Source: Deltaproteobacteria bacterium
Lineage (GTDB): Bacteria > Desulfobacterota > GWC2-55-46
Length of the DNA: 64,000 nt
Assembly (NCBI GenBank): GCA_016219115.1
Contig: JACRCH010000053.1
Span: 7,322 to 71,321, forward strand
Direction of reading: 5' to 3'
Both the position numbers and the translations under genes were made by a program. The notes under the pieces were generated by a model. It was not told where the DNA came from. It saw only the letters and a list, made by a program, of their open reading frames with translations, and did no database searches. Positions 19,768-63,287 of the stretch are shown one piece after another. How positions within the stretch are numbered: the stretch's first letter is position 1; every line of letters begins with the position of its first letter.

Positions 19768-19869
19768 GAACATCCCCGCAAGCCTTGCTAGCGTGGTATC
19801 CCGAAGGGATATCTGTTTTTATATACGCGGCAAGCCGCGCATAATTCAACCCGAAGGAAATATTAAAAG
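19768..19869 (+). repeat. repeat family 2 copy in the fliI-fliJ spacer
   Basis: GAACATCCCCGCAAGCCTTGCTAGCGTGG..ATCTGTTTTTATATACGCGGCAAGCCGCGC..CCCGAAGGAAATATTAAAAG. It ends 4 nt from the fliI stop codon. Confidence 0.8.
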
Positions 19870-33274: not shown

Positions 33275-33484
33275 CTTTAATTTTTCCTTCGGTTAAATGG
33301 GTGTGCCAGCCGCAATCCCGTCGCTTTAGCGGCGGGTCAAGGCTGGCAAATACAAATGATCTTCCATACCATCAAAATTCTCCGTCATTTATGGCGGAGA
33401 ATTTTAATTAAGCGCGGCTCGCCGCGTACATAAAAACAGATATCCCAACGGAAACCCCGATAGCAAGGCAAAGCGGGGCGGTTC
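33275..33484 (-). repeat. repeat family 2 copy in inverted orientation, carrying a nested family 3 element
   Basis: The reverse complement reads GAACCGCCCCGCTTTGCCTTGCTATCGGGGTTTCCGTTGGGATATCTGTTTTTATGTACGCGGCGAGCCGCGCTTAATTAAA-[insert]-ACCGAAGGAAAAATTAAAG. Confidence 0.8.
33295..33407 (-). repeat. repeat family 3 (two-hairpin element) nested inside family 2
   Basis: The reverse complement is identical over roughly 85 nt to the copy at 56862-56973 (AAAATTCTCCGCCATAAATGACGGAGAATTTTGATGGTATGGAAGATCATTTGTATTTGCCAGCCTTGACCCGCCGC..). Confidence 0.85.
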
Positions 33485-38540: not shown

Positions 38541-38638
38541 TTTGAGCTACCTCTGCGGGGGAGTTTAGACATGAGCATAGCAAAAGAGCGCGTCTTTTGC
38601 CACGACATTACAGATTATATCTTATAAAAGGATTAATT

Positions 38639-38751
38639 GAAGTACCCCGCCGTGAATGCCGGAGTCCTGCCCGGTAAGGGTCCTGTCATCTTTATTTACA
38701 GGCCGCCTTGACCCGCTTATGGAGCGGTGGTGTCGCGGCGTTCACCCGTTC
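38639..38751 (+). repeat. repeat family 3 copy (diverged)
   Basis: GAAGTACCCCGCCGTGAATGCCGGAG..GTCATCTTTATTTACAGGCCGCCTTGACCCGCTTATGGAGCGGTGG.. aligns with the copies at 45742 and 63135. Confidence 0.7.
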
Positions 38752-38805
38752 ACGGGCGACAGCGTCAAAAAAGCGGGTTCTGGAGCGTGGGTGATGAACC
38801 ACCCC

Positions 38806-38999
38806 GCTAGCCTTGCCAGCGGGGTATCTCCTTAAGCCCAGCCCTCCCTTTATTGCGAGGGCTGGGCTCCCGTTGCGCGAAGCCGATGCAACGGGAAGCG
38901 GGTGGGGGTGAAAACATTTTTTCACCCCTACCCTCCCCCATCGAGGGGGAGGGTTTTTATAAAAAAACCCACTAGCAAGCTACAGGGATTTTAGTGATT
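38806..38999 (+). repeat. repeat family 1 copy (long mosaic hairpin element)
   Basis: GAACCACCCCGCTAGCCTTGCCAGCGGGGTATCTCC, then four internal hairpin modules, then ACTAGCAAGCTACAGGGATTTTAGTGATT. Confidence 0.85.
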
Positions 39000-41414: not shown

Positions 41415-43246
41415 CTGAGGAGTTTGTATATCCTGAAGGCCTCCGCGTACTGGACCCCGGCCTGGATCCCCCGGTGGGCGGCTCTGCCTTTTATGACCTC
41501 GGGGTTCATGTAGTTCTTATCCTCCTGGGTCCTGTGGAAGGTGATGGTCTTCATCTTGTCGCCTATGTACCCTGAGATATCTATGAAGAAATTCGGGACG
41601 AACTCCCTCGGGGTGCTCACGTCCTCGTAGCACAATACCGAGATGTTCCTGGCCGCGACCTTCGTGGCGTCGAATACCGCCCTGTGGTCCGAGTGTATGT
41701 CTATCGCCGTATGCGTCAGGACGATGGTGGCACCGGTCTGCTTTATCTTCTCCTCGACGGCGTCTTTCATCTGCGTCACGCAGTCCTTGAGGCCGGTGTC
41801 CGGGAAGTCGAGGACCCAGAAACCGTTGAGTTCCATGAACTCCGCCGCCTTCCTGAGTTCGTCTTCCCTCTTGCCGTTCGTGTCAGCGCCTTTCTCGCCC
41901 CTGGACATCGTAAGGCCGTAGACGGTGGCGCCGCTGTCCTTGGCCTTCATTATGTAGCCGCCGCACCCGAGCTCGATGTCGTCCGGGTGGGCCCCGACGG
42001 CGAGTATCACGGTCCTGGAGAACTCCTTGGACTGTCTCTCGCCCCACAGGAGCGTCAGGAACGACACCCCGAAGGTAAGGAAAAGCGCGGCCTCGGAGAG
42101 GTCTTCCAGAAAACCGATGTTCAACAGCTCGCCGAAGTAGCTCTCCCCTATGTACGACGCCAGCGTCAGGAGCACTATGGCCGGGAGCACATAGCTTACC
42201 AGGTAGAGGTACGCCCTGTGCTTTCGCTTCAAAATCTTTCTCTTGGTCCTGCTTACGGTCAGGACTATTATAAAGACGATGGCGTAGGCGGTTATCTCGA
42301 AGGCCTCGCTCAGCAGTTTTATTACGGAGTACTTCCCCTCGTTCCTTATGTCCCTGAAGAGCTCAAGCGCCCCGGTGTCAGTGGGGTCTATCCTCATGGC
42401 GGCCTTTACCTCGTCCTCGGCAAGCTTCCTGCTGTCGGTCTTGCGGTAGAGTTTGGCGAGCAGCATGTGGTTTTCAACGCTGTTAGGCTCTATTTCTATG
42501 GCCTTCCTGTATGACTCGGCGGCCTGCTGATAAGCCCTCATCCAGGAATAGACGTCACCCATCGTCCTGTACGCCTCGGCGTAGTTGGGGTGCAGCTCCA
42601 CGGCCTTGTTCAGCGACGCTATCGCCTTCTTGAAGTTCTTCTGCCAGGCCAGGACCGTCCCCATGTCCTTGTGTAGCTCGGAGTCGTCCGGATAGTGGAC
42701 TATCGCTCTGTCCAGGACCTCTACGGCCTTTGAGAGGTCCCCGGTCATCGAGTAGGTCTTTCCGAGCCCCTTGAGGGCCTCGTGGTTCTCCGGGTCGGCC
42801 CGAAGGACCTCCTTGTAGAGCCTCTCTGCCTCGTCGTACCTGTGCGACCACCTCAGGACGACGGCAAGGCCGTTTAAGAGGCTTCCGTTCTTCGGGTCAA
42901 GCTCAAGGGCGTCCCTGTAGGTGACGACAGCCCTGTCGTAGTTTCCGGTCCACGAGTAAAGCTCGGCGAGATGGCCCCTGGCGTTTATGTCCCTGGGGTC
43001 AAGCTCCACCACTTTCTTGTATCGGTCTATCGCTTCGGTGAAGTTCTTGAGTTTTACGTAGGACTCGGCGAGGTCTTTAAGGGCCGGGGTGTAGCTCGGG
43101 TTTAAAGAAGCGGAGTCGTGCAGCAGCACCTCCGCCTCTTTCGCCCTGCCCTGGTCTAAAAGCGCGTGACCTTCCTTGTAAAGGTCTATGTAGGTGGCCT
43201 GCAGCAGATAGGCCCCGACCAGTATCGAAAACAATGAAACCTCCAC
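41411..43246 (-). CDS. TPR-repeat / 3-TM / PIG-L (LmbE) family deacetylase fusion protein
   Basis: N-terminal hydrophobic segment, about 8 TPRs, a TM block with the basic loop SRTKRKILKRKHR, and a C-terminal PIG-L domain (AVGAHPDDIELGCGG, IHSDH). The tracked start is GTG inside a repeat remnant, so the start is uncertain. The stop overlaps the GT2 start by 4 nt. Confidence 0.8.
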   Translation of the reverse strand: MEVSLFSILVGAYLLQATYIDLYKEGHALLDQGRAKEAEVLLHDSASLNPSYTPALKDLAESYVKLKNFTEAIDRYKKVVELDPRDINARGHLAELYSWTGNYDRAVVTYRDALELDPKNGSLLNGLAVVLRWSHRYDEAERLYKEVLRADPENHEALKGLGKTYSMTGDLSKAVEVLDRAIVHYPDDSELHKDMGTVLAWQKNFKKAIASLNKAVELHPNYAEAYRTMGDVYSWMRAYQQAAESYRKAIEIEPNSVENHMLLAKLYRKTDSRKLAEDEVKAAMRIDPTDTGALELFRDIRNEGKYSVIKLLSEAFEITAYAIVFIIVLTVSRTKRKILKRKHRAYLYLVSYVLPAIVLLTLASYIGESYFGELLNIGFLEDLSEAALFLTFGVSFLTLLWGERQSKEFSRTVILAVGAHPDDIELGCGGYIMKAKDSGATVYGLTMSRGEKGADTNGKREDELRKAAEFMELNGFWVLDFPDTGLKDCVTQMKDAVEEKIKQTGATIVLTHTAIDIHSDHRAVFDATKVAARNISVLCYEDVSTPREFVPNFFIDISGYIGDKMKTITFHRTQEDKNYMNPEVIKGRAAHRGIQAGVQYAEAFRIYKLLR

Positions 43247-43334
43247 CGCAAGCCCATTGGCCAGCGGGGTATCCGTAGGCTAATTCCCCAAAACTCCACG
43301 AAAAGCCCCGGCGGTTTAAACGCTTGAGAAAAAT

Positions 43335-43424
43335 GAACCACCCCGCAAGCCTTGCTAGCGGGGTATCTCCTACCCTCCCCCTCGATGGGGGAGGGTTTTA
43401 CAAGGGCAAGCTACAGGGAATTCC
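43335..43424 (+). repeat. repeat family 1, short variant
   Basis: GAACCACCCCGCAAGCCTTGCTAGCGGGGTATCTCC + CCCTCCCCCTCGATGGGGGAGGG + CAAGCTACAGGGAATT. It lacks three internal modules and ends 4 nt from the stop of the beta-barrel gene. A further partial 5' module lies at about 43248-43280. Confidence 0.8.
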
Positions 43425-43427
43425 AAG

Positions 43428-45741: not shown

Positions 45742-45845
45742 AAGAACCCCGACATAAATGATGGGGATTCTTCACGGCCAGGTGATCGTCATCTTTATAG
45801 CTCGTCTGAACCCGTTTATAGAGCGGCGGGGTTGCGGCCGGCACT
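45742..45845 (+). repeat. repeat family 3 copy
   Basis: AAGAACCCCGACATAAATGATGGGGATTCTTCACGGCCAGGTGATCGTCATCTTTATAGCTCGTCTGAACCCGTTTATAGAGCGGCGGGG.. Confidence 0.75.
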
Positions 45846-45980
45846 TCTTCAACTCATACAATAATGAAGGGATCTCTTTCATGGCTGAAAAGCAGAGTTG
45901 AAAGATACTGAAGAATATATCACTTGAATTTGATATTTTTCTGTGATTATTGCTACAAATGGAACCACCGGGGTATTAAT

Positions 45981-46080
45981 GAACCACCCCACAAGCCAGG
46001 CTCCGGGGTTTCCGTTGGGGAATCTGTTTTTATATACGCGGCAAGCCGCGCTTAATTAAACCCGAAGGAAATATTAAAAA
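45981..46080 (+). repeat. repeat family 2 copy
   Basis: GAACCACCCCACAAGCCAGGCTCCGGGGTTTCCGTTGGGGAATCTGTTTTTATATACGCGGCAAGCCGCGCTTAATTAAACCCGAAGGAAATATTAAAAA. It is preceded by a collapsed 5' module at 45962-45976. Confidence 0.85.
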
Positions 46081-46780: not shown

Positions 46781-46854
46781 TGGAGCGGGTGAAGGGAATC
46801 GAACCCTCGTCTAAAGCTTGGGAAGCTTTCATTCTACCATTGAACTACACCCGC
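46781..46854 (-). tRNA. tRNA-Gly (anticodon CCC), CCA encoded
   Basis: Hand-folded cloverleaf: acceptor GCGGGTG/CACCCGC, D arm GTTC-AATGGTA-GAAT, anticodon arm AAAGC-TTCCCAA-GCTTT, T arm GAGGG-TTCGATT-CCCTT, 3' TCCA. Total 74 nt. Confidence 0.9.
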
Positions 46855-47198
46855 AAAAAATCAAATGGAATCAACTAATTACGTCATTTTTAACACCTGA
46901 CCCGCAGTAAAAACCAGACCAGTGACGATTATTACCGGTGAGATACTCAAGATTATCAAATTTATATTAAATACTTTTCTGAGTCAAGAGTATTCTAAAT
47001 TATCGTAACGAGCAGCCAGGGGTTTTGAGCCAATTTGCCACTACTATATCTGTCACCTGACAAAATAATTTAACGAGGATATAACCGATTACACCTACTG
47101 CTCTTCATTTTCGGGAAGTTTTGAAGGTTGAAGATTCCGAGAAAAAAGATTGACTCGTCTGTTTCAGCAACGCAAAACCTGAAATGCGGGACTCAGTG

Positions 47199-49346
47199 TC
47201 AGTCACTTAACTCTCTCTGGAAAGTCATCATCTCAGACGGCTTCCATCTTTCCATGAACTGTTCGACCTCCTGCGCGCTTGATGGTTTCATGAGCAGGTA
47301 CCCCTGTATATAGTCACATCCAAGCTTCTTAAGTATTTTGAGCTGTTCCACGGTCTCAACACCTTCGGCTACTATTCCTATACCGAGGCTGTGGGCCAGG
47401 GAGATGATAGCGGTTGTTATAGCGATATCGTCTTTATCTGCGGGTATGTCGCGGATGAAGGACCGGTCTATCTTGATGATGTCTATGGGCATTGATTTGA
47501 GGTATGAGAGCGATGAGAACCCGGTCCCGAAGTCATCGATGGATAGCCTGATCCCCAACGCCTTAAGATCCCTTAGTATCTTGACCGTATGCTCCGCGTC
47601 GGTCATGATGATGCTCTCCGTAAGCTCGATCTCCAGGTACTCCGGAGGCAAACCGGTTTTTTTCAATATACCGGCAATTGTGTCCACAAAATCCTTCTCC
47701 TTGAACTGGCGCATCGAGATGTTGACCGAAAATCTGATATTCTTCAATCCGTTAAGCCGCCGGGCATTGGCCTGAGCGCAGGCAGTCGTGAGCACCCAGG
47801 ATGTGATGGGTACGATAAGGCCGGTCTCCTCGGCAATCGGGATGAACCTGCCGGGAGGTATGAGCTCGGTTTCCGGGTCCTGCCAGCGGATAAGACACTC
47901 CAGTCCGACAATCTCTCCGGTGAAAACGTCGGCCTGCGGCTGATAATAAAGGACGAACTCGTTCAGCTCAAGGGCCTTATGGAGCTTGTACTCGAGTCTC
48001 AGCCAGTCTTTTCTTCTCAGGTCGAGCGAGGAATTGTACATCTTGCTGTTATTCCTTCCCTCTTCCTTTGCCAAATACATCGCCATATCGGCCTTTTTGA
48101 AAAGATCTTCCACGCTGTCTCCATCACCGGGGAAGATGCTTACCCCAATGCTTGTCGTTACGAAGAGCTCATGCCCTTTTATCGTGAATGGCGCGTCAAA
48201 GCAGGCGAGGATCCTGTTCGTAATGTTTACTACATTGTCATCCTTTGACAGGTCCGGCAGCAGCACTATGAACTCGTCGCCTCCGAGACGGGCCACGGTA
48301 CTTTCAATGACAGGGTGTTCGTGCTTGCCTTTTTCAAGTGGGCGAGCCACTATGTCGGATAGTCTGAGACTCTGCCGGAGCTTGTTCGCAATGATCTTCA
48401 GAAGCTCATCCCCCGCTTCGTGCCCCAGTGTGTCGTTGACGAACTTGAAGTGGTCAAGGTCTAGAAATAGCACCGCCACATGTCTTCCGTTACGCGCGGC
48501 GCGGGCAAACGCCTGGTCAGCGCGGTCCCTGAGAAGAAGCCTGTTAGGCAGCCCCGTGAGGGCGTCGTAATAGGCCATGGTGAAAATCGTCAGTTCATCC
48601 TCCTTGAGCCTTGTGACGTCGTCTATGACTACGAGCGCCTGTTTGTCGGCGCCAGCTTCCGAGGACTGGATCAAGGTCACACTCGCCTGCAGGTACCTCG
48701 TCTTCTCACCCTCCTTAAGTTCAAAAGCAAGCCCGTTTTTAGCTTCCCCTGTCTCGAATACCTTCTCGACGGCCCTGTTGAAGCCCTCTGCCCGCACGGT
48801 CTCCTCTATCTTTCTTCCGACTATATCGCTTGTGCTCAGGATTCTGTAAGACGAAGTATTGGCATATAGCGCAAGGTGCTCCTTCGAAACGACGATGATA
48901 CTTGACGAGACGCTCTGTATGATGTCTTCGGTGTGCTGTTTCAGAGCGACCTTTTCAATGAGGGCTTTGTGAAGGATCTCCCGCTCCAAGGCCTCCTGTT
49001 TGAGCCTGGCTTCTGTCTGAAGGTTTCTGGAGACAACCGTTACAACCCAATAGTACAGGAAAGGCGCGCTTATTACCGAAAGGAGCAGAGAGTCTGCAAG
49101 GTACTTCACGACCCCTTCATTGAGATTCAGGGCGAACAAGAAGACCATCACCAAGAACTCAGAGGTGACTATTACGAACAGTATCTTGAAAAAGAGCATG
49201 TACGGTTTTATCTTGCGTCCGTCGCCCTCTTTCCGTAGCTGTTCATGAGAACCGCTGACAGAGCTTTTTTCGTTTTGCATTGTGGTGGTGTCTGCTGTTT
49301 GGTTATCCGCGGTGGGTAGGCGCCCATGTACGGTACTGAACGCCAT
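47199..49346 (-). CDS. membrane-anchored PAS-GGDEF-EAL protein (c-di-GMP turnover)
   Basis: 2 TM segments at the N-terminus, a PAS-like region, a GGDEF domain ([11 protein letters not shown]) and an EAL domain ([20 protein letters not shown]). The gene and its flanks are visibly more AT-rich than the rest of the window. Confidence 0.9.
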
Positions 49347-51339: not shown

Positions 51340-51682
51340 AGCTTGAGGGGCCCTGACGTACAGGTACTCCGGGAGGTCACTGAAAAGATCAAATGGCCGT
51401 CAAAAGCGAACGCAATGAAGCAGTCTCTTCCTTCGGGAAATCACCTGCCCGGCAGGCCGCTTCGTCGAAAAAATCGCTTTTCGCAGTGACGATCGACGAT
51501 TTATTTAGAAACCTTCTGAAAAACAGTCCCCTCCGGCTAAGGACCCGTCTGTTCCGAGTCTTGATGAACCCTCCCTGTGCTTAAAACCCCAGGGTTTTCA
51601 GAACCTTAAAAATAAAAAAATCTGGAAATTTGAAAGTTAGGCTGTTACTTTGAGAATGTTTTTGGTATAATCCGCGGCAATC

Positions 51683-51782
51683 GAACCACCCCGCAAGCCT
51701 TGCTATCGGGATTTCCGTTGGGAAATCTGTTTTATATACGCGGCAAGCCGCGTGGTATTCAACCCGAAGGAAATATTAAAAG
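51683..51782 (+). repeat. repeat family 2 copy
   Basis: GAACCACCCCGCAAGCCTTGCTATCGGGATTTCCGTTGGGAAATCTGTTTTATATACGCGGCAAGCCGCGTGGTATTCAACCCGAAGGAAATATTAAAAG. Confidence 0.85.
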
Positions 51783-51840
51783 CTTCCCCTGTAACGCGCT
51801 CTTTTGACTTAAAAAAACGAAGACGTGACAGGGATATGAT

Positions 51841-52075
51841 GAACCACCCAGGAGCAAGCTCCGGTATCAAACGAACAAAAAGAGGTTGTTATCGATCCGC
51901 CGTACGCCAGTACCCCCTCCCTTGATTGCGAAGGCTGGGCTCCCGTTGCGCTCTTCCGATGCAACGGGAAGCGGGGAGGGTGAAAACCTGTTTTCACCCC
52001 CACCCTACCCTCCCCCATCAAGGGGGAGGATTTTACAAGGAACCCTCTGGCAAGCTAGCAGGGAATTTTGTGATT
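51841..52075 (+). repeat. repeat family 1 copy (long form with an extra internal segment)
   Basis: GAACCACCCAGGAGCAAGCTCCGG ... GGCTGGGCTCCCGTTGCGCTCTTCCGATGCAACGGGAAGCGGGGAGGGTGAAAACCTGTTTTCACCCCCACCCTACCCTCCCCCATCAAGGGGGAGG ... CAAGCTAGCAGGGAATTTTGTGATT. Confidence 0.85.
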
Positions 52076-52089
52076 AAAAGGAGGATAGG

Positions 52090-52587
52090 ATGGATCCAGT
52101 GCATTTTTCAGGCAAAGAAGTCCTTACTATGGCCGTAAGGATCGAGGAGAACGGCATGAGGTTCTATACCGACGCTGCCAGGGCCGCTAAATCAGACGGA
52201 CTTAAAGAGCTTTTCAAAGTCCTGGCCGAAGAGGAAGGCCGCCACATAAAGATATTCTCGGAGTTGAAAAGGCTTGTCGCCGACGACACGGTGAACGAAG
52301 GGTTCGACCCGCAGTTGAGCGAGGCATCTCTTTACCTCAAGGCGATAGCCGACACAGAGGTCTTTACCAGGGCCGATAAGGGCAAAAAGGTCGCCAGACA
52401 GGTGCACGACGAGAAAGGAGCCCTCAAGGTAGCTATCGACATGGAAAAGGACTCGCTCCTGTTCTACTACGAGCTGCAAAGACTCATACGCGAGAGGGAC
52501 AAGGCCGTGATAGAGAGCCTGATAGAGCAGGAAAAAGAGCATGTAAGAAAGCTTACCGAGGCCCAGACCTCGCTCTACGGGAAATAA
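52090..52587 (+). CDS. ferritin-like / rubrerythrin-family diiron-domain protein
   Basis: 165-aa four-helix-bundle-type sequence with paired E..EExH-like motifs (IEENGMRFY, AEEEGRHIKIF, MEKDSLLFY, EQEKEHVRKL). It has no rubredoxin domain. Confidence 0.65.
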   Translation: MDPVHFSGKEVLTMAVRIEENGMRFYTDAARAAKSDGLKELFKVLAEEEGRHIKIFSELKRLVADDTVNEGFDPQLSEASLYLKAIADTEVFTRADKGKKVARQVHDEKGALKVAIDMEKDSLLFYYELQRLIRERDKAVIESLIEQEKEHVRKLTEAQTSLYGK

Positions 52588-56615: not shown

Positions 56616-56654
56616 AACAGAGCCTGTCAGGGGACAACCCCGACAGGCTCTGTT
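56616..56654 (+). terminator. long hairpin after the PAP2-ArnT gene (terminator candidate)
   Basis: AACAGAGCCTGTC-aggggacaacccc-GACAGGCTCTGTT, located 10 nt after the stop. It is followed by a second small hairpin, CCCCTTTCGGGGTTT, which belongs to the adjacent repeat. Confidence 0.45.
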
Positions 56655-56750
56655 AATCCCCTTTCGGGGTTTAATTAAGCGCGCTTGCCGCGAGAATTTT
56701 TGAACAGAGTTTCTAAGAATACCCCGCTGCTTGCGGCGGGGTAGTTTATC
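56655..56750 (-). repeat. diverged repeat family 2 copy in inverted orientation
   Basis: TTTCGGGGTTTAATTAAGCGCGCTTGCCGCGAG...ATACCCCGCTGCTTGCGGCGGGGTAG aligns with the reverse complement of family 2. Confidence 0.55.
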
Positions 56751-56861
56751 GTTTCCGGTTCAGCAGGTTGCGTAAAAACGCAGGCCGGATGCAATCCATG
56801 TGGTGATAAGCCGAGCCTTGGAAATGTAATTTTTCCTTGCCAGACAGAGCGACGCTCTGCA

Positions 56862-56973
56862 ATTAAAATTCTCCGCCATAAATGACGGAGAATTTTGATG
56901 GTATGGAAGATCATTTGTATTTGCCAGCCTTGACCCGCCGCTTTAGCGGCGGGTCAAGGCTGGCACACCCATT
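56862..56973 (+). repeat. repeat family 3 copy (best-preserved)
   Basis: Hairpin 1 is AAAATTCTCCG-ccataaatga-CGGAGAATTTT. Hairpin 2 is a perfect 19-bp stem, GCCAGCCTTGACCCGCCGC-ttta-GCGGCGGGTCAAGGCTGGC. Confidence 0.9.
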
Positions 56974-61678: not shown

Positions 61679-61692
61679 ATAAATCTCTTTAT

Positions 61693-61899
61693 GAACCACC
61701 CCGCGAGCCTTGCTCCGGGGTGTCTCCTTAAGCCCAGCCCTCCCTTGATGGGAGGGCTGGGCTCCCGTTGCGCTCTTCCGATGCAACGGGAAGCGGTGGG
61801 GGTGAAAACCTGTTTTCACCCCCACCCTACCCTCCCCCTCGATGGGGGAGGGTTTTTATAAGGAAACCCTGCTGGCAAGCTACAGGGAATTTTGTGATT
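61693..61899 (+). repeat. repeat family 1 copy (reference copy); its 3' end overlaps the fabD stop codon
   Basis: GAACCACCCCGCGAGCCTTGCTCCGGGGTGTCTCC / GCCCAGCCCTCCCTTGATGGGAGGGCTGGGC / CCCGTTGCGCTCTTCCGATGCAACGGG / GGGGGTGAAAACCTGTTTTCACCCCC / CCCTCCCCCTCGATGGGGGAGGG / CCCTGCTGGCAAGCTACAGGGAATTTTGTGATT. Confidence 0.9.
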
Positions 61900-62833: not shown

Positions 62834-62957
62834 CTCTTTTGTCCTTGGCGGCTGAGATTGCGGCCGCGCGCGAAAAAACGCGGTCCGGACTGATCTTATT
62901 TACAAGTTATTTTTTTAACGGTCTGATGCCTCCCGTGCTGCAAGCCCCGGAAGGATT

Positions 62958-63134
62958 GAACCACCCCGGAGCAAGCTCCGGGGTATCTCCTTAACCCTCC
63001 CCTCCCTCGATTGCGAGGGGATCGATAGGAGGGTGAAAACATTTTTTCACCCCCACCCTACCCTCACCCTCCCCCCTCGAGGGGGAGGGTTTTACAAGGA
63101 AACCCTCTATCTTGCTACAGGGAATTTTGTGATT
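62958..63134 (+). repeat. repeat family 1 copy
   Basis: GAACCACCCCGGAGCAAGCTCCGGGGTATCTCC ... GGGTGAAAACATTTTTTCACCCCC ... CCCTCCCCCCTCGAGGGGGAGGG ... CTTGCTACAGGGAATTTTGTGATT. Confidence 0.85.
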
Positions 63135-63243
63135 GAAGAACCCTGCCATGGATGACGGGTATTCTTCACGGTAAGGCGATCGTCATTTTCACATCCCGCC
63201 TTGACCCGCTTATTGAGCGGCGGGACCGCGGCGTCCACCGTTC
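63135..63243 (+). repeat. repeat family 3 copy, directly abutting family 1
   Basis: GAAGAACCCTGCCATGGATGACGGGTATTCTTCACGGTAAGGCGATCGTCATTTTCACATCCCGCCTTGACCCGCTTATTGAGCGGCGGGACCGCGG.. Confidence 0.75.
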
Positions 63244-63287
63244 ATATCTGAATCCTAAAAAACACAAAAGCGGTCGAGCGCGCCGGA

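Follow-up and report, generated by a model that had tools for sequence, protein, structure and literature searches.

The DNA examined here is a stretch of 64,000 nucleotides from contig JACRCH010000053.1 of an uncultured deltaproteobacterium, and this whole stretch is referred to as the window. Its minus strand carries a flagellar cluster, sigma-54 regulators, an exopolysaccharide (EPS) locus with GT2, TPR and PIG-L genes, an ABC/HlyD exporter and the operon fabH-fabD-fabG-acpP-fabF, and a short block on the plus strand comprises aldehyde dehydrogenase, rubrerythrin, aminotransferase and PMT genes. Between these genes we observed five copies of a repeat, termed Family 1, all of them on the plus strand (c1 to c5, Table 1). 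As the initial annotation had proposed, it is a non-coding repeat with several hairpins, dispersed through intergenic DNA, of the kind represented by MITEs (miniature transposable elements with inverted repeats) and by repetitive extragenic palindromes (REPs) with their bacterial interspersed mosaic elements (BIMEs).

The kinship of the copies is evident from a self-BLASTN of the window, in which c2 and c4 match c1 with E = 4e-62 and E = 5e-55, respectively, and c5 matches c1 and c4 with E = 1e-24 and 4e-25. The 11-mer GAACCACCCCG, with at most one mismatch allowed, occurs eight times in the window versus 1.5 expected occurrences, a count reached by none of 100 shuffles. The copies measure about 95-235 nt and keep no open reading frame (ORF) in common; in addition to the five in the window, a sixth was found on the contig L128 of a relative. 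Together with related elements, Family 1 makes up ~11% of the 8.7 kb of intergenic DNA in the window (summed part coordinates). The positions first assigned to the copies were mostly accurate, but c2 starts at about 38794-38796 and not at 38806. A mini-ORF beginning ATGAACCACCCC (translated as MNHPASLASGVSP and a stop) was considered and discarded, its frame and stop not being kept between copies and a consistent Shine-Dalgarno motif being absent.

Table 1. Positions of Family 1 copies and of related repeats in the window and, where a contig is named, in relatives; ^ marks an element boundary.
Feature	Position	Strand	Composition	Context
Family 1 copy c1	61691..61898	+	L-A-B-C-D-R	fabD-fabG spacer; minus-strand reading TTAA^ATCAC...GGTTCAT^
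Family 1 copy c2	38794..38998	+	L-A-B-C-D-R	between GT2 glycosyltransferase and HlyD-like genes; minus-strand left flank TTTA
Family 1 copy c3	43333..43427	+	L-D-R short form	upstream part of 194-nt composite insertion 43234-43427
Degenerate L-type end module and linker	43234..43332	+	minus strand ...GATACCCCGCTGGCCAATGGGCTTGCGGTGGAGGTTTCAT^TG	completes c3 composite insertion
Family 1 copy c4	51840..52074	+	variant L, ~50 nt unique, partial A, then B-C-D-R	rubrerythrin gene 5' leader, sense orientation; minus-strand left flank TTTA
Family 1 copy c5	62957..63133	+	L-A'-C-D-R	fabH-fabD spacer; directly after TTCA ending D8 repeat
D3 copy	19770..19868	+	degenerate L end module	fliI-fliJ spacer
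D3 copy	45981..46079	+	shares L end module	L and R remnants just upstream, 45939-45980
D3 copy	51683..51781	+	shares L end module	few nt downstream of extended -10-like site TGGTATAAT
D3-type copy	33395..33484	-	L module in opposite orientation	between convergent genes
Degenerate D3-type copy	56650..56765	-	opposite orientation	between convergent PMT and SHMT genes
D8 repeat	38636-38752, 45742-45838, 63132-63244; L127 1786-1883		~100-115 nt, 69-80% identical between copies	
Further repeat	33296-33409, 56861-56973 (mutually inverted); L128 4486-4603; L136 1-116		hairpin AATTCTCCGCCAT..ATGGCGGAGAATT	

Aligning the Family 1 copies resolves a 5' module (L) of the form (A)TGAACCACCCCG-hairpin-GGGGTATCTCC, a 3' module (R) of the form CCCTG..GCAAGCTA..CAGGGAATTTTGTGAT and, between them, the four GC-rich hairpin cassettes that had been recognised at the outset: A with the arms GCCCAGCCCTCCC/GGGAGGGCTGGGC, B with CCCGTTGC/GCAACGGG, C with GGGGGTGAAAAC/GTTTTCACCCCC and D with CCCTCCCCC/GGGGGAGGG, the last followed by a T-run. 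The statement that all copies begin and end alike is approximately right, but in the alignment three of them deviate: the 5' module of c4 is a variant (GAACCACCCAGG...GGTATCAAACG) followed by ~50 nt of unique sequence, the 3' end of c3 is a variant (GGGAATTCCAAG) and c5 carries CTTGCTACAGGG. The cassettes do vary from copy to copy; to regard them as independent units occurring in different combinations is, however, overstated, as none of A to D was found alone in the window, where all are confined to Family 1 copies, and only three module orders exist, namely L-A-B-C-D-R (c1, c2, c4), L-A'-C-D-R (c5 and the L128 copy) and L-D-R (c3). Because the cassettes never occur solo and the variants fall into three forms, the mosaic fits two or three subfamilies together with internal deletions of hairpin cassettes. 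Folding was strong relative to dinucleotide shuffles, with z = -11.0 for c1 as plus-strand RNA, -12.1 as minus-strand RNA and -11.4 as DNA, -8.9 for c2 and -5.5 for c5. On the minus strand of c4 (51997-52016), c1 (61819-61838) and c5 (63050-63076) there is also a canonical G-quadruplex motif, GGGGGAGGGTAGGGTGGGGG; these are three of the five such motifs in the window, the plus strand has none, and the D and C hairpins otherwise tie up their G-tracts.

The ends of the element are most easily described on the minus strand, where it reads TT(A/C/T)A^ATCACAAAATT-hairpin(CCCTG..CAGGG)...hairpin(CCCCG..CGGGG)-TGGTTCA(T)^. Both hairpins are thus subterminal, the left one preceded by 11 nt (ATCACAAAATT) and the right one followed by 7 nt (TGGTTCA). 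The left flanks are TTAA (c1), TTTA (c2), TTAA (the c3 composite), TTTA (c4), TTCA (c5) and TTCA (L128), so that TT(A/C/T)A stands directly 5' of the element in 6/6 copies, a small sample; TTNA accounts for 2.8% of the tetranucleotides in the intergenic DNA of the window. At c1, c3 and c5 the flanking tetranucleotide is present in the empty site of relatives as well, and it therefore belongs to the target, not to the element. Since the right end, GGTTCA(T), is invariant and the left flank varies, the TTCA of the right end and the left flank do not form a target duplication.

The 3' module had been taken for an imperfect inverted copy of the 5' module and hence for part of a terminal inverted repeat (TIR), a description that finds weak support at most. 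Within-copy local alignments of the two ends score 12-18 versus a shuffle mean of 10-12 (sd ~2), which is near shuffle level. The L and R hairpins are related, but by hand alignment the relation is inverted for the L allele of c1-c3 (~83% identical to the inverted R hairpin) and direct for the allele of c4, c5 and L128 (~71% identical to R). In favour of the description, the two ends pair as a long terminal stem in the minimum free energy (MFE) fold of c2, and they pair in RNAalifold.

Syntenic contigs of relatives, recovered via FabD, ACP and GT2 homologues, contain the counterparts of three of the five sites without the element. In L127, whose FabD is 94% identical, the fabH-fabD and fabD-fabG spacers lack c5 and c1 and measure 221 and 85 nt, as compared to 454 and 256 nt in the window. 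The fabH-fabD spacers align cleanly (window GGGTTCTTCA^ATCAC...GGTTCA(A)^TCCTTCC, L127 GGGGTTCTTCA^TTCCCCC), and so does the left junction in the fabD-fabG spacer (window GCGCTTAA^ATCAC, L127 GCGCTTAAATAG). Here the 3' module of c1 (61880-61899) has replaced the stop codon of FabD, which is TAG in the relatives, and the protein has gained five residues (it ends in LKSQNSL), being 317 aa long in the window versus 312 aa in the relatives. The site of c3 is defined to the base: the window reads TTTAA^194 nt^TGTTTT and the contigs L142, L143 and L144 (GT2 85, 83 and 80% identical), in which the stop and start codons of two TPR genes overlap as TAATG, the ancestral state, read TTTAATGTTTT. No target-site duplication is present at this cleanly resolved composite insertion. 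The insert consists of c3 and a second, degenerate L-type end, GGTGGAGGTTTCAT, carrying a GGAGG Shine-Dalgarno motif for the downstream TPR/PIG-L gene, the start of which now is TTG (43234) or GTG (43246; region 43228-43250). Judged from these motifs, a repeat end has apparently been co-opted as the translation-initiation region of that gene.

No Family 1 or D3 copies (D3 being a related repeat described below) were found in ~39.5 kb of syntenic contigs of the ~80% relative (L129, L133, L144). In L128, whose FabD is 82% identical, a copy of the form L-A'-C-D-R lies elsewhere, immediately behind the PMT gene, and is oriented like the window copies relative to the shared gene order. Because of the empty sites in relatives and the L128 copy elsewhere, comparison of these contigs indicates that within a narrow clade Family 1 moves or, at the least, has been acquired and lost; it would have colonised the intergenic spacers after the split from the closest sampled relatives.

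All five Family 1 copies and the L128 copy are oriented alike. The initial claim of one constant orientation accordingly stands for Family 1, but not for the related D3 family, which has the same 5' module and lies on both strands. Of 16 bins of 4 kb, 14 show a negative GC skew on the plus strand, and the minus strand carries most of the genes; for these two reasons the minus strand probably is the leading-strand sequence and hence the lagging-strand template. Orientation also matters for transcription. The D hairpin with its T-run is the top terminator-like match on the plus strand in c1 and c2, where, on that strand only, 10-bp stems (61829-61853 in c1, 38930-38954 in c2) precede TTTTT, the T-run being 4 T in c3, c4 and c5. 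By its GC-rich stem-loop and subsequent T-run, cassette D would thus match an intrinsic terminator on the plus strand, and the D3 family has a hairpin and T-run of its own. Six Family 1 and D3 copies lie between co-directional genes of the minus strand, and not one of them has the terminating orientation; copies in sense orientation occur where genes converge or in the 5' leader of the rubrerythrin gene. As the six in-operon copies are without exception non-terminating, selection against operon-internal terminators may have produced or reinforced the orientation bias.

How could such an element move? In the IS200/IS605 family of insertion sequences (IS), the left end is inserted 3' of an element-specific tetra- or pentanucleotide and the lagging-strand template is targeted (PMC5027513). 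Based on the absence of a duplication, the subterminal hairpins, the tetranucleotide target, the similar oligonucleotide (TTCA) at the right end, the single orientation, the short forms and the stacking of elements, we favour mobilisation as a single strand. Family 1 would be a lineage-specific, non-autonomous mobile DNA element served in trans by an HUH Y1 enzyme, akin to BIMEs and to the palindrome-associated transposable elements (PATEs) rather than to a TIR/DDE MITE, a reading to which we assign an even chance. The enzyme, an IS200/IS605 TnpA or a REP-associated tyrosine transposase (RAYT), would be supplied from elsewhere in the genome and would bind the subterminal hairpins. The minus strand, as lagging-strand template, would be the active strand in a 'peel-and-paste' single-strand transposition, with insertion immediately 3' of TTNA and no target duplication, and, once inserted, the element would be part of operon transcripts, in which it would form a series of highly stable hairpins.

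A number of points weigh against this proposal and are best considered together. The 64 kb window encodes no Y1 transposase, RAYT or TnpB; the initial annotation had said as much of transposases and RAYT, and Pfam searches with 40 ORFs yielded flagellar, signalling, EPS and ABC genes, the remaining genes being syntenic with the relatives' annotated fab, SHMT, PMT and rubrerythrin genes. A pairing between guide sequence and cleavage site as in IS608 was not demonstrable. The evidence base comprises 5+1 copies and three empty sites, one of which is not clean: on the right side of the fabD-fabG insertion, ~21 nt present in L127 are missing from the window. The direction of replication is deduced from skew and gene strand alone, which are mutually confounded, and the orientation bias could be purely selective. 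The partly inverted, pairing ends may leave room for a TIR-recognising enzyme. Finally, no compensatory changes were seen among the Family 1 copies, because the stems are almost invariant among recent copies.

A TIR-recognising enzyme is at the heart of a different explanation, namely that Family 1 is a MITE in the classical sense, derived by deletion from a TIR-bearing IS or hitch-hiking on one, and moved by DDE double-strand cut-and-paste. Small size, lack of coding capacity, multiple copies and insertion polymorphism agree with it, and so do the partly inverted 5' and 3' modules (the ~83% of one allele, by hand alignment) together with their pairing in c2 and in RNAalifold. The base-precise c3 site without target-site duplication (TTTAA^...^TG versus TTTAATG) argues against it, however, as do the near-shuffle similarity of the ends within a copy, the other 5' hairpin allele, which is a direct and not an inverted copy of the 3' hairpin, the common orientation of the five copies and of that in L128, and the position of the hairpins 11 and 7 nt from the ends; we regard a classical MITE as quite unlikely. 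Alternatively, Family 1 might be a REP-like structural or regulatory element maintained by the host (a hairpin that stabilises or processes mRNA, a terminator acting in one orientation, or a site bound by protein), spread by recombination or gene conversion and retained by selection, its mobility being incidental. The stability of the hairpins on both strands, the terminator-like D hairpin and T-run on the plus strand only, the non-terminating orientation of all six in-operon Family 1/D3 copies with the opposite orientation of the convergent and 5' leader copies, and the wide occurrence of D-like hairpins in unrelated metagenomes would fit this view. Yet the copies are missing at the same operon junctions of close relatives and are therefore dispensable there, gene ends were damaged by the insertions (one stop codon lost, one translational coupling broken), parts of the interior have been freely deleted and no covariation speaks for selection on the structure; moreover, host maintenance accounts for retention, but not for precise insertions. 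This explanation seems to us improbable.

The terminator-like D hairpin on the plus strand might also be taken to end a small (or antisense) RNA, so that Family 1 would be a family of RNA genes on that strand, and in support of this the L-module copy at 51683 lies a few nt after an extended -10-like site that is kept in L129. The other copies, however, have no promoter-like sequence upstream (counts not above shuffles) and unrelated flanks, ~40 nt of conserved 3' module extend beyond the supposed terminator, Rfam gives no match and the internal cassettes are dispensable, all of which makes RNA genes a very remote prospect. A small RNA gene family with its own promoter was rejected, no promoter-like signal above shuffles being present upstream of the copies. 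An integron attC or CRISPR-like array was likewise rejected: what lies between the copies are core housekeeping genes (fab, flagellar), neither an integrase nor a cas gene is present, and the ends depart from the attC consensus GTTRRRY.

Regarding known systems, the closest likeness of the single-strand element we favour is to the PATEs, non-autonomous IS200/IS605-type derivatives in Haloquadratum, which have near-terminal palindromes, no TIRs, no target duplication and core deletions mediated by repeats (PMC3119063). Family 1 likewise has palindromes near but not at its termini, lies beside a short specific oligonucleotide (TTNA) without target duplication, keeps to one strand, and is heterogeneous, with short or terminal-only versions formed by core deletion and with elements clustered or inserted into one another. 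It differs in that no related IS605-type transposon or TnpA/TnpB is seen in the 64 kb window, in that its interior consists of four GC-rich hairpins and not of tnp remnants, in that its end hairpins are both direct and inverted, and in its host, a deltaproteobacterium rather than a haloarchaeon.

REPs resemble the subterminal hairpins of IS200/IS605 elements (PMC3333891), and REP/BIME sequences are processed by the related RAYT (TnpA-REP) enzymes in Enterobacteria and Pseudomonas (PMC3333891, PMC2817692). Family 1 likewise has imperfect, GC-rich palindromes that lie between genes, in many cases directly behind a stop codon, and paired related hairpins with variable linkers that give rise to mosaic variants, and its enzyme, too, would be encoded elsewhere, as is the single-copy RAYT; REP/BIME sequences number more than 100 per genome, the RAYT gene being flanked by REPs, and have known effects on mRNA stability and termination in their hosts. 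A REP is defined as an imperfect palindrome of 30-40 nt with a conserved GTAG 5' of its foot (PMC3333891), but the end hairpins of Family 1 have 20-23 nt and, instead of GTAG, AATT or GA(T/C)A 5' of the foot, GTAG/CTAC lying inside the hairpin of the 3' module. The units furthermore are longer than REPs and BIMEs (~200 nt), contain four extra hairpins and are strictly oriented.

Likenesses to other modular repeats are ones of description; a relationship in sequence would not be expected. The pneumococcal BOX element is composed of boxA-boxB(n)-boxC, i.e. conserved end modules around a variable number of internal modules, and the Correia elements of Neisseria and ERIC elements of enterobacteria have TA duplications and true terminal inverted repeats. 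Family 1, too, has conserved end modules around variable internal ones, and it shares with BOX, Correia and ERIC the extensive secondary structure and the insertion into operons and next to gene ends, where transcripts may be affected, but no duplication was seen and its TIRs are weak, unlike those of Correia and ERIC. Modular MITE-like repeats of these kinds have been reviewed (PMC3184786, PMC10969869). Within the Deltaproteobacteria, the 'multicopy nucleotide sequences' of Geobacter are lineage-specific intergenic repeats, some of them palindromic (PMC2996986, PMC2700814), that make up 12% of the intergenic regions in G. bemidjiensis (PMC2996986) and are mostly absent from sister species; no sequence shared with Family 1 was found, GAACCACC, GGTGGTTC and CCCTCCCCC being absent from the alignments in their supplement.

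Other resources were equally silent, in line with the initial annotation, which had not recognised a described family. Rfam returned only a tRNA at the gathering threshold, matches overlapping the elements remaining far below it (30 versus 140 bits and 30 versus 50 bits). The 5' module GAACCACCCCGNNAGCCTTGC gave six single chance matches in unrelated taxa among 185,579 GTDB species genomes, a set in which the source and its close relatives evidently were unmatched. BLASTN against plasmids and a pattern scan of viral contigs revealed no Family 1 match, a literature search for literal sequence strings returned primer coincidences only, and the six-frame translation of four concatenated copies, used as protein query, had no match at E <= 1e-3. 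Taken together, Family 1 is a real, lineage-specific, previously uncatalogued hairpin-ended mobile repeat of the known MITE/PATE/REP-BIME type, and nothing points to a new category of system.

In metagenomes, the search pattern for cassette D proved too generic, as it also describes a C-tract hairpin widespread in soil and other contigs; among the matches listed, only L041 and L123 share more than one cassette with Family 1. L041 (1560-1655) and L123 (190-285 and ~700-790) have the order A'-C-D as in c5, at 75% identity over 96 nt, and the two L123 copies are ~505 nt apart without Tandem Repeats Finder reporting an array. Many unrelated soil and sediment contigs (among the L007-L126 matches listed) contain a nearly identical D-like motif, CACCCCCACCC(T/A)ACCCTCCCCC-loop-GGGGGAGGGTTTT, for example L015, L025, L031, L055, L056, L066, L063 (2287-2424) and L082 (8059-8661), and the likeness extends at least 13 nt beyond the bases required by the search pattern. 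In some contigs the motif is doubled in inverted, REPIN-like fashion, with arms of 68 nt that are 79% complementary and lie 2 nt apart, or is part of 330-nt tandem units. The D-like motif may represent a widespread REP-like or terminator module, or convergence.

Family 1 is not the only repeat in the window. Its L module also heads the second family, D3, with three copies on the plus and two on the minus strand (Table 1). Upstream of one D3 copy, decayed fragments (45939-45980) comprise the 3'-end motif GTGATT and an L module that lacks its hairpin, GGAACCACCGGGGTATTAAT, indicating nested or tandem insertions followed by deletion. D8, a third repeat, adjoins Family 1 or D3 copies in the window, is present without Family 1 in the fabH-fabD spacer of L127 (the 94% relative) and has no Rfam match. 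Its minus-strand end, GGG(G)T(T/A)CTTCA, is like the end of the L module, and c5 is inserted exactly after that TTCA. The two window copies of the AATTCTCCGCCAT..ATGGCGGAGAATT repeat are 94% identical to each other, and in two relatives this repeat fills the fabD-fabG spacer, which holds c1 in the window, so that different elements have colonised one intergenic region in different lineages.

A broader view, which we offer tentatively and consider rather doubtful, would unite Family 1, D3 and D8 in one undescribed modular superfamily sharing a single right-end module (hairpin and T(G/C)(G/T)TTCA) and moved by a single-strand (HUH) or another enzyme of this deltaproteobacterial clade. Insertion of its members may be exact to the base, 3' of TTNA, free of duplication and confined to one strand orientation, and the members may stack on one another's TTCA ends; cassette D, which is made up of four C-tracts (on the opposite strand a G-quadruplex motif), a hairpin and a T-run, would then be a REP-like or terminator module that spans phyla and serves a function in its own right.

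The rubrerythrin leader (window 51630-52090; L129 19844-20123) was compared in the same manner. The extended -10-like site upstream of the gene is kept, as TGGTATAAT in the window and TGTTATAAT in L129, and the 5' leader measures ~135 nt in L129 versus ~410 nt in the window, because D3 and c4 sit in the latter in sense orientation, each with a terminator-like hairpin. At the same place of the L129 leader stands an R-like hairpin, CCCTGCCGTAAAGCCGCAGGG, read on the equivalent of the window minus strand, a hint of either a related element of greater age or a hot spot for insertion. Elsewhere, a tRNA (46784-46854, minus strand) and a GGDEF-EAL gene (47199-49346) lie between a 143-aa ORF and the aldehyde dehydrogenase gene (region 46784-49346); the gene calls of the ~80% relative (L144 4435-5153) list no counterpart of either, no tRNA scan of this interval having been made.

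For the annotation of uncultured Deltaproteobacteria these elements are of practical relevance, as they generate spurious ORFs, alter gene ends (five residues added to FabD; a translationally coupled gene pair split and provided with a new start and Shine-Dalgarno motif) and add terminator-like hairpins and G-quadruplex motifs inside operons. Should the single-strand, TTNA-targeted mechanism be true, the archaeal PATEs would have in Family 1 a bacterial counterpart with several hairpins, and the filled and empty sites among close relatives would constitute a natural system in which the spread of such elements, and their tolerance in essential operons, could be followed.

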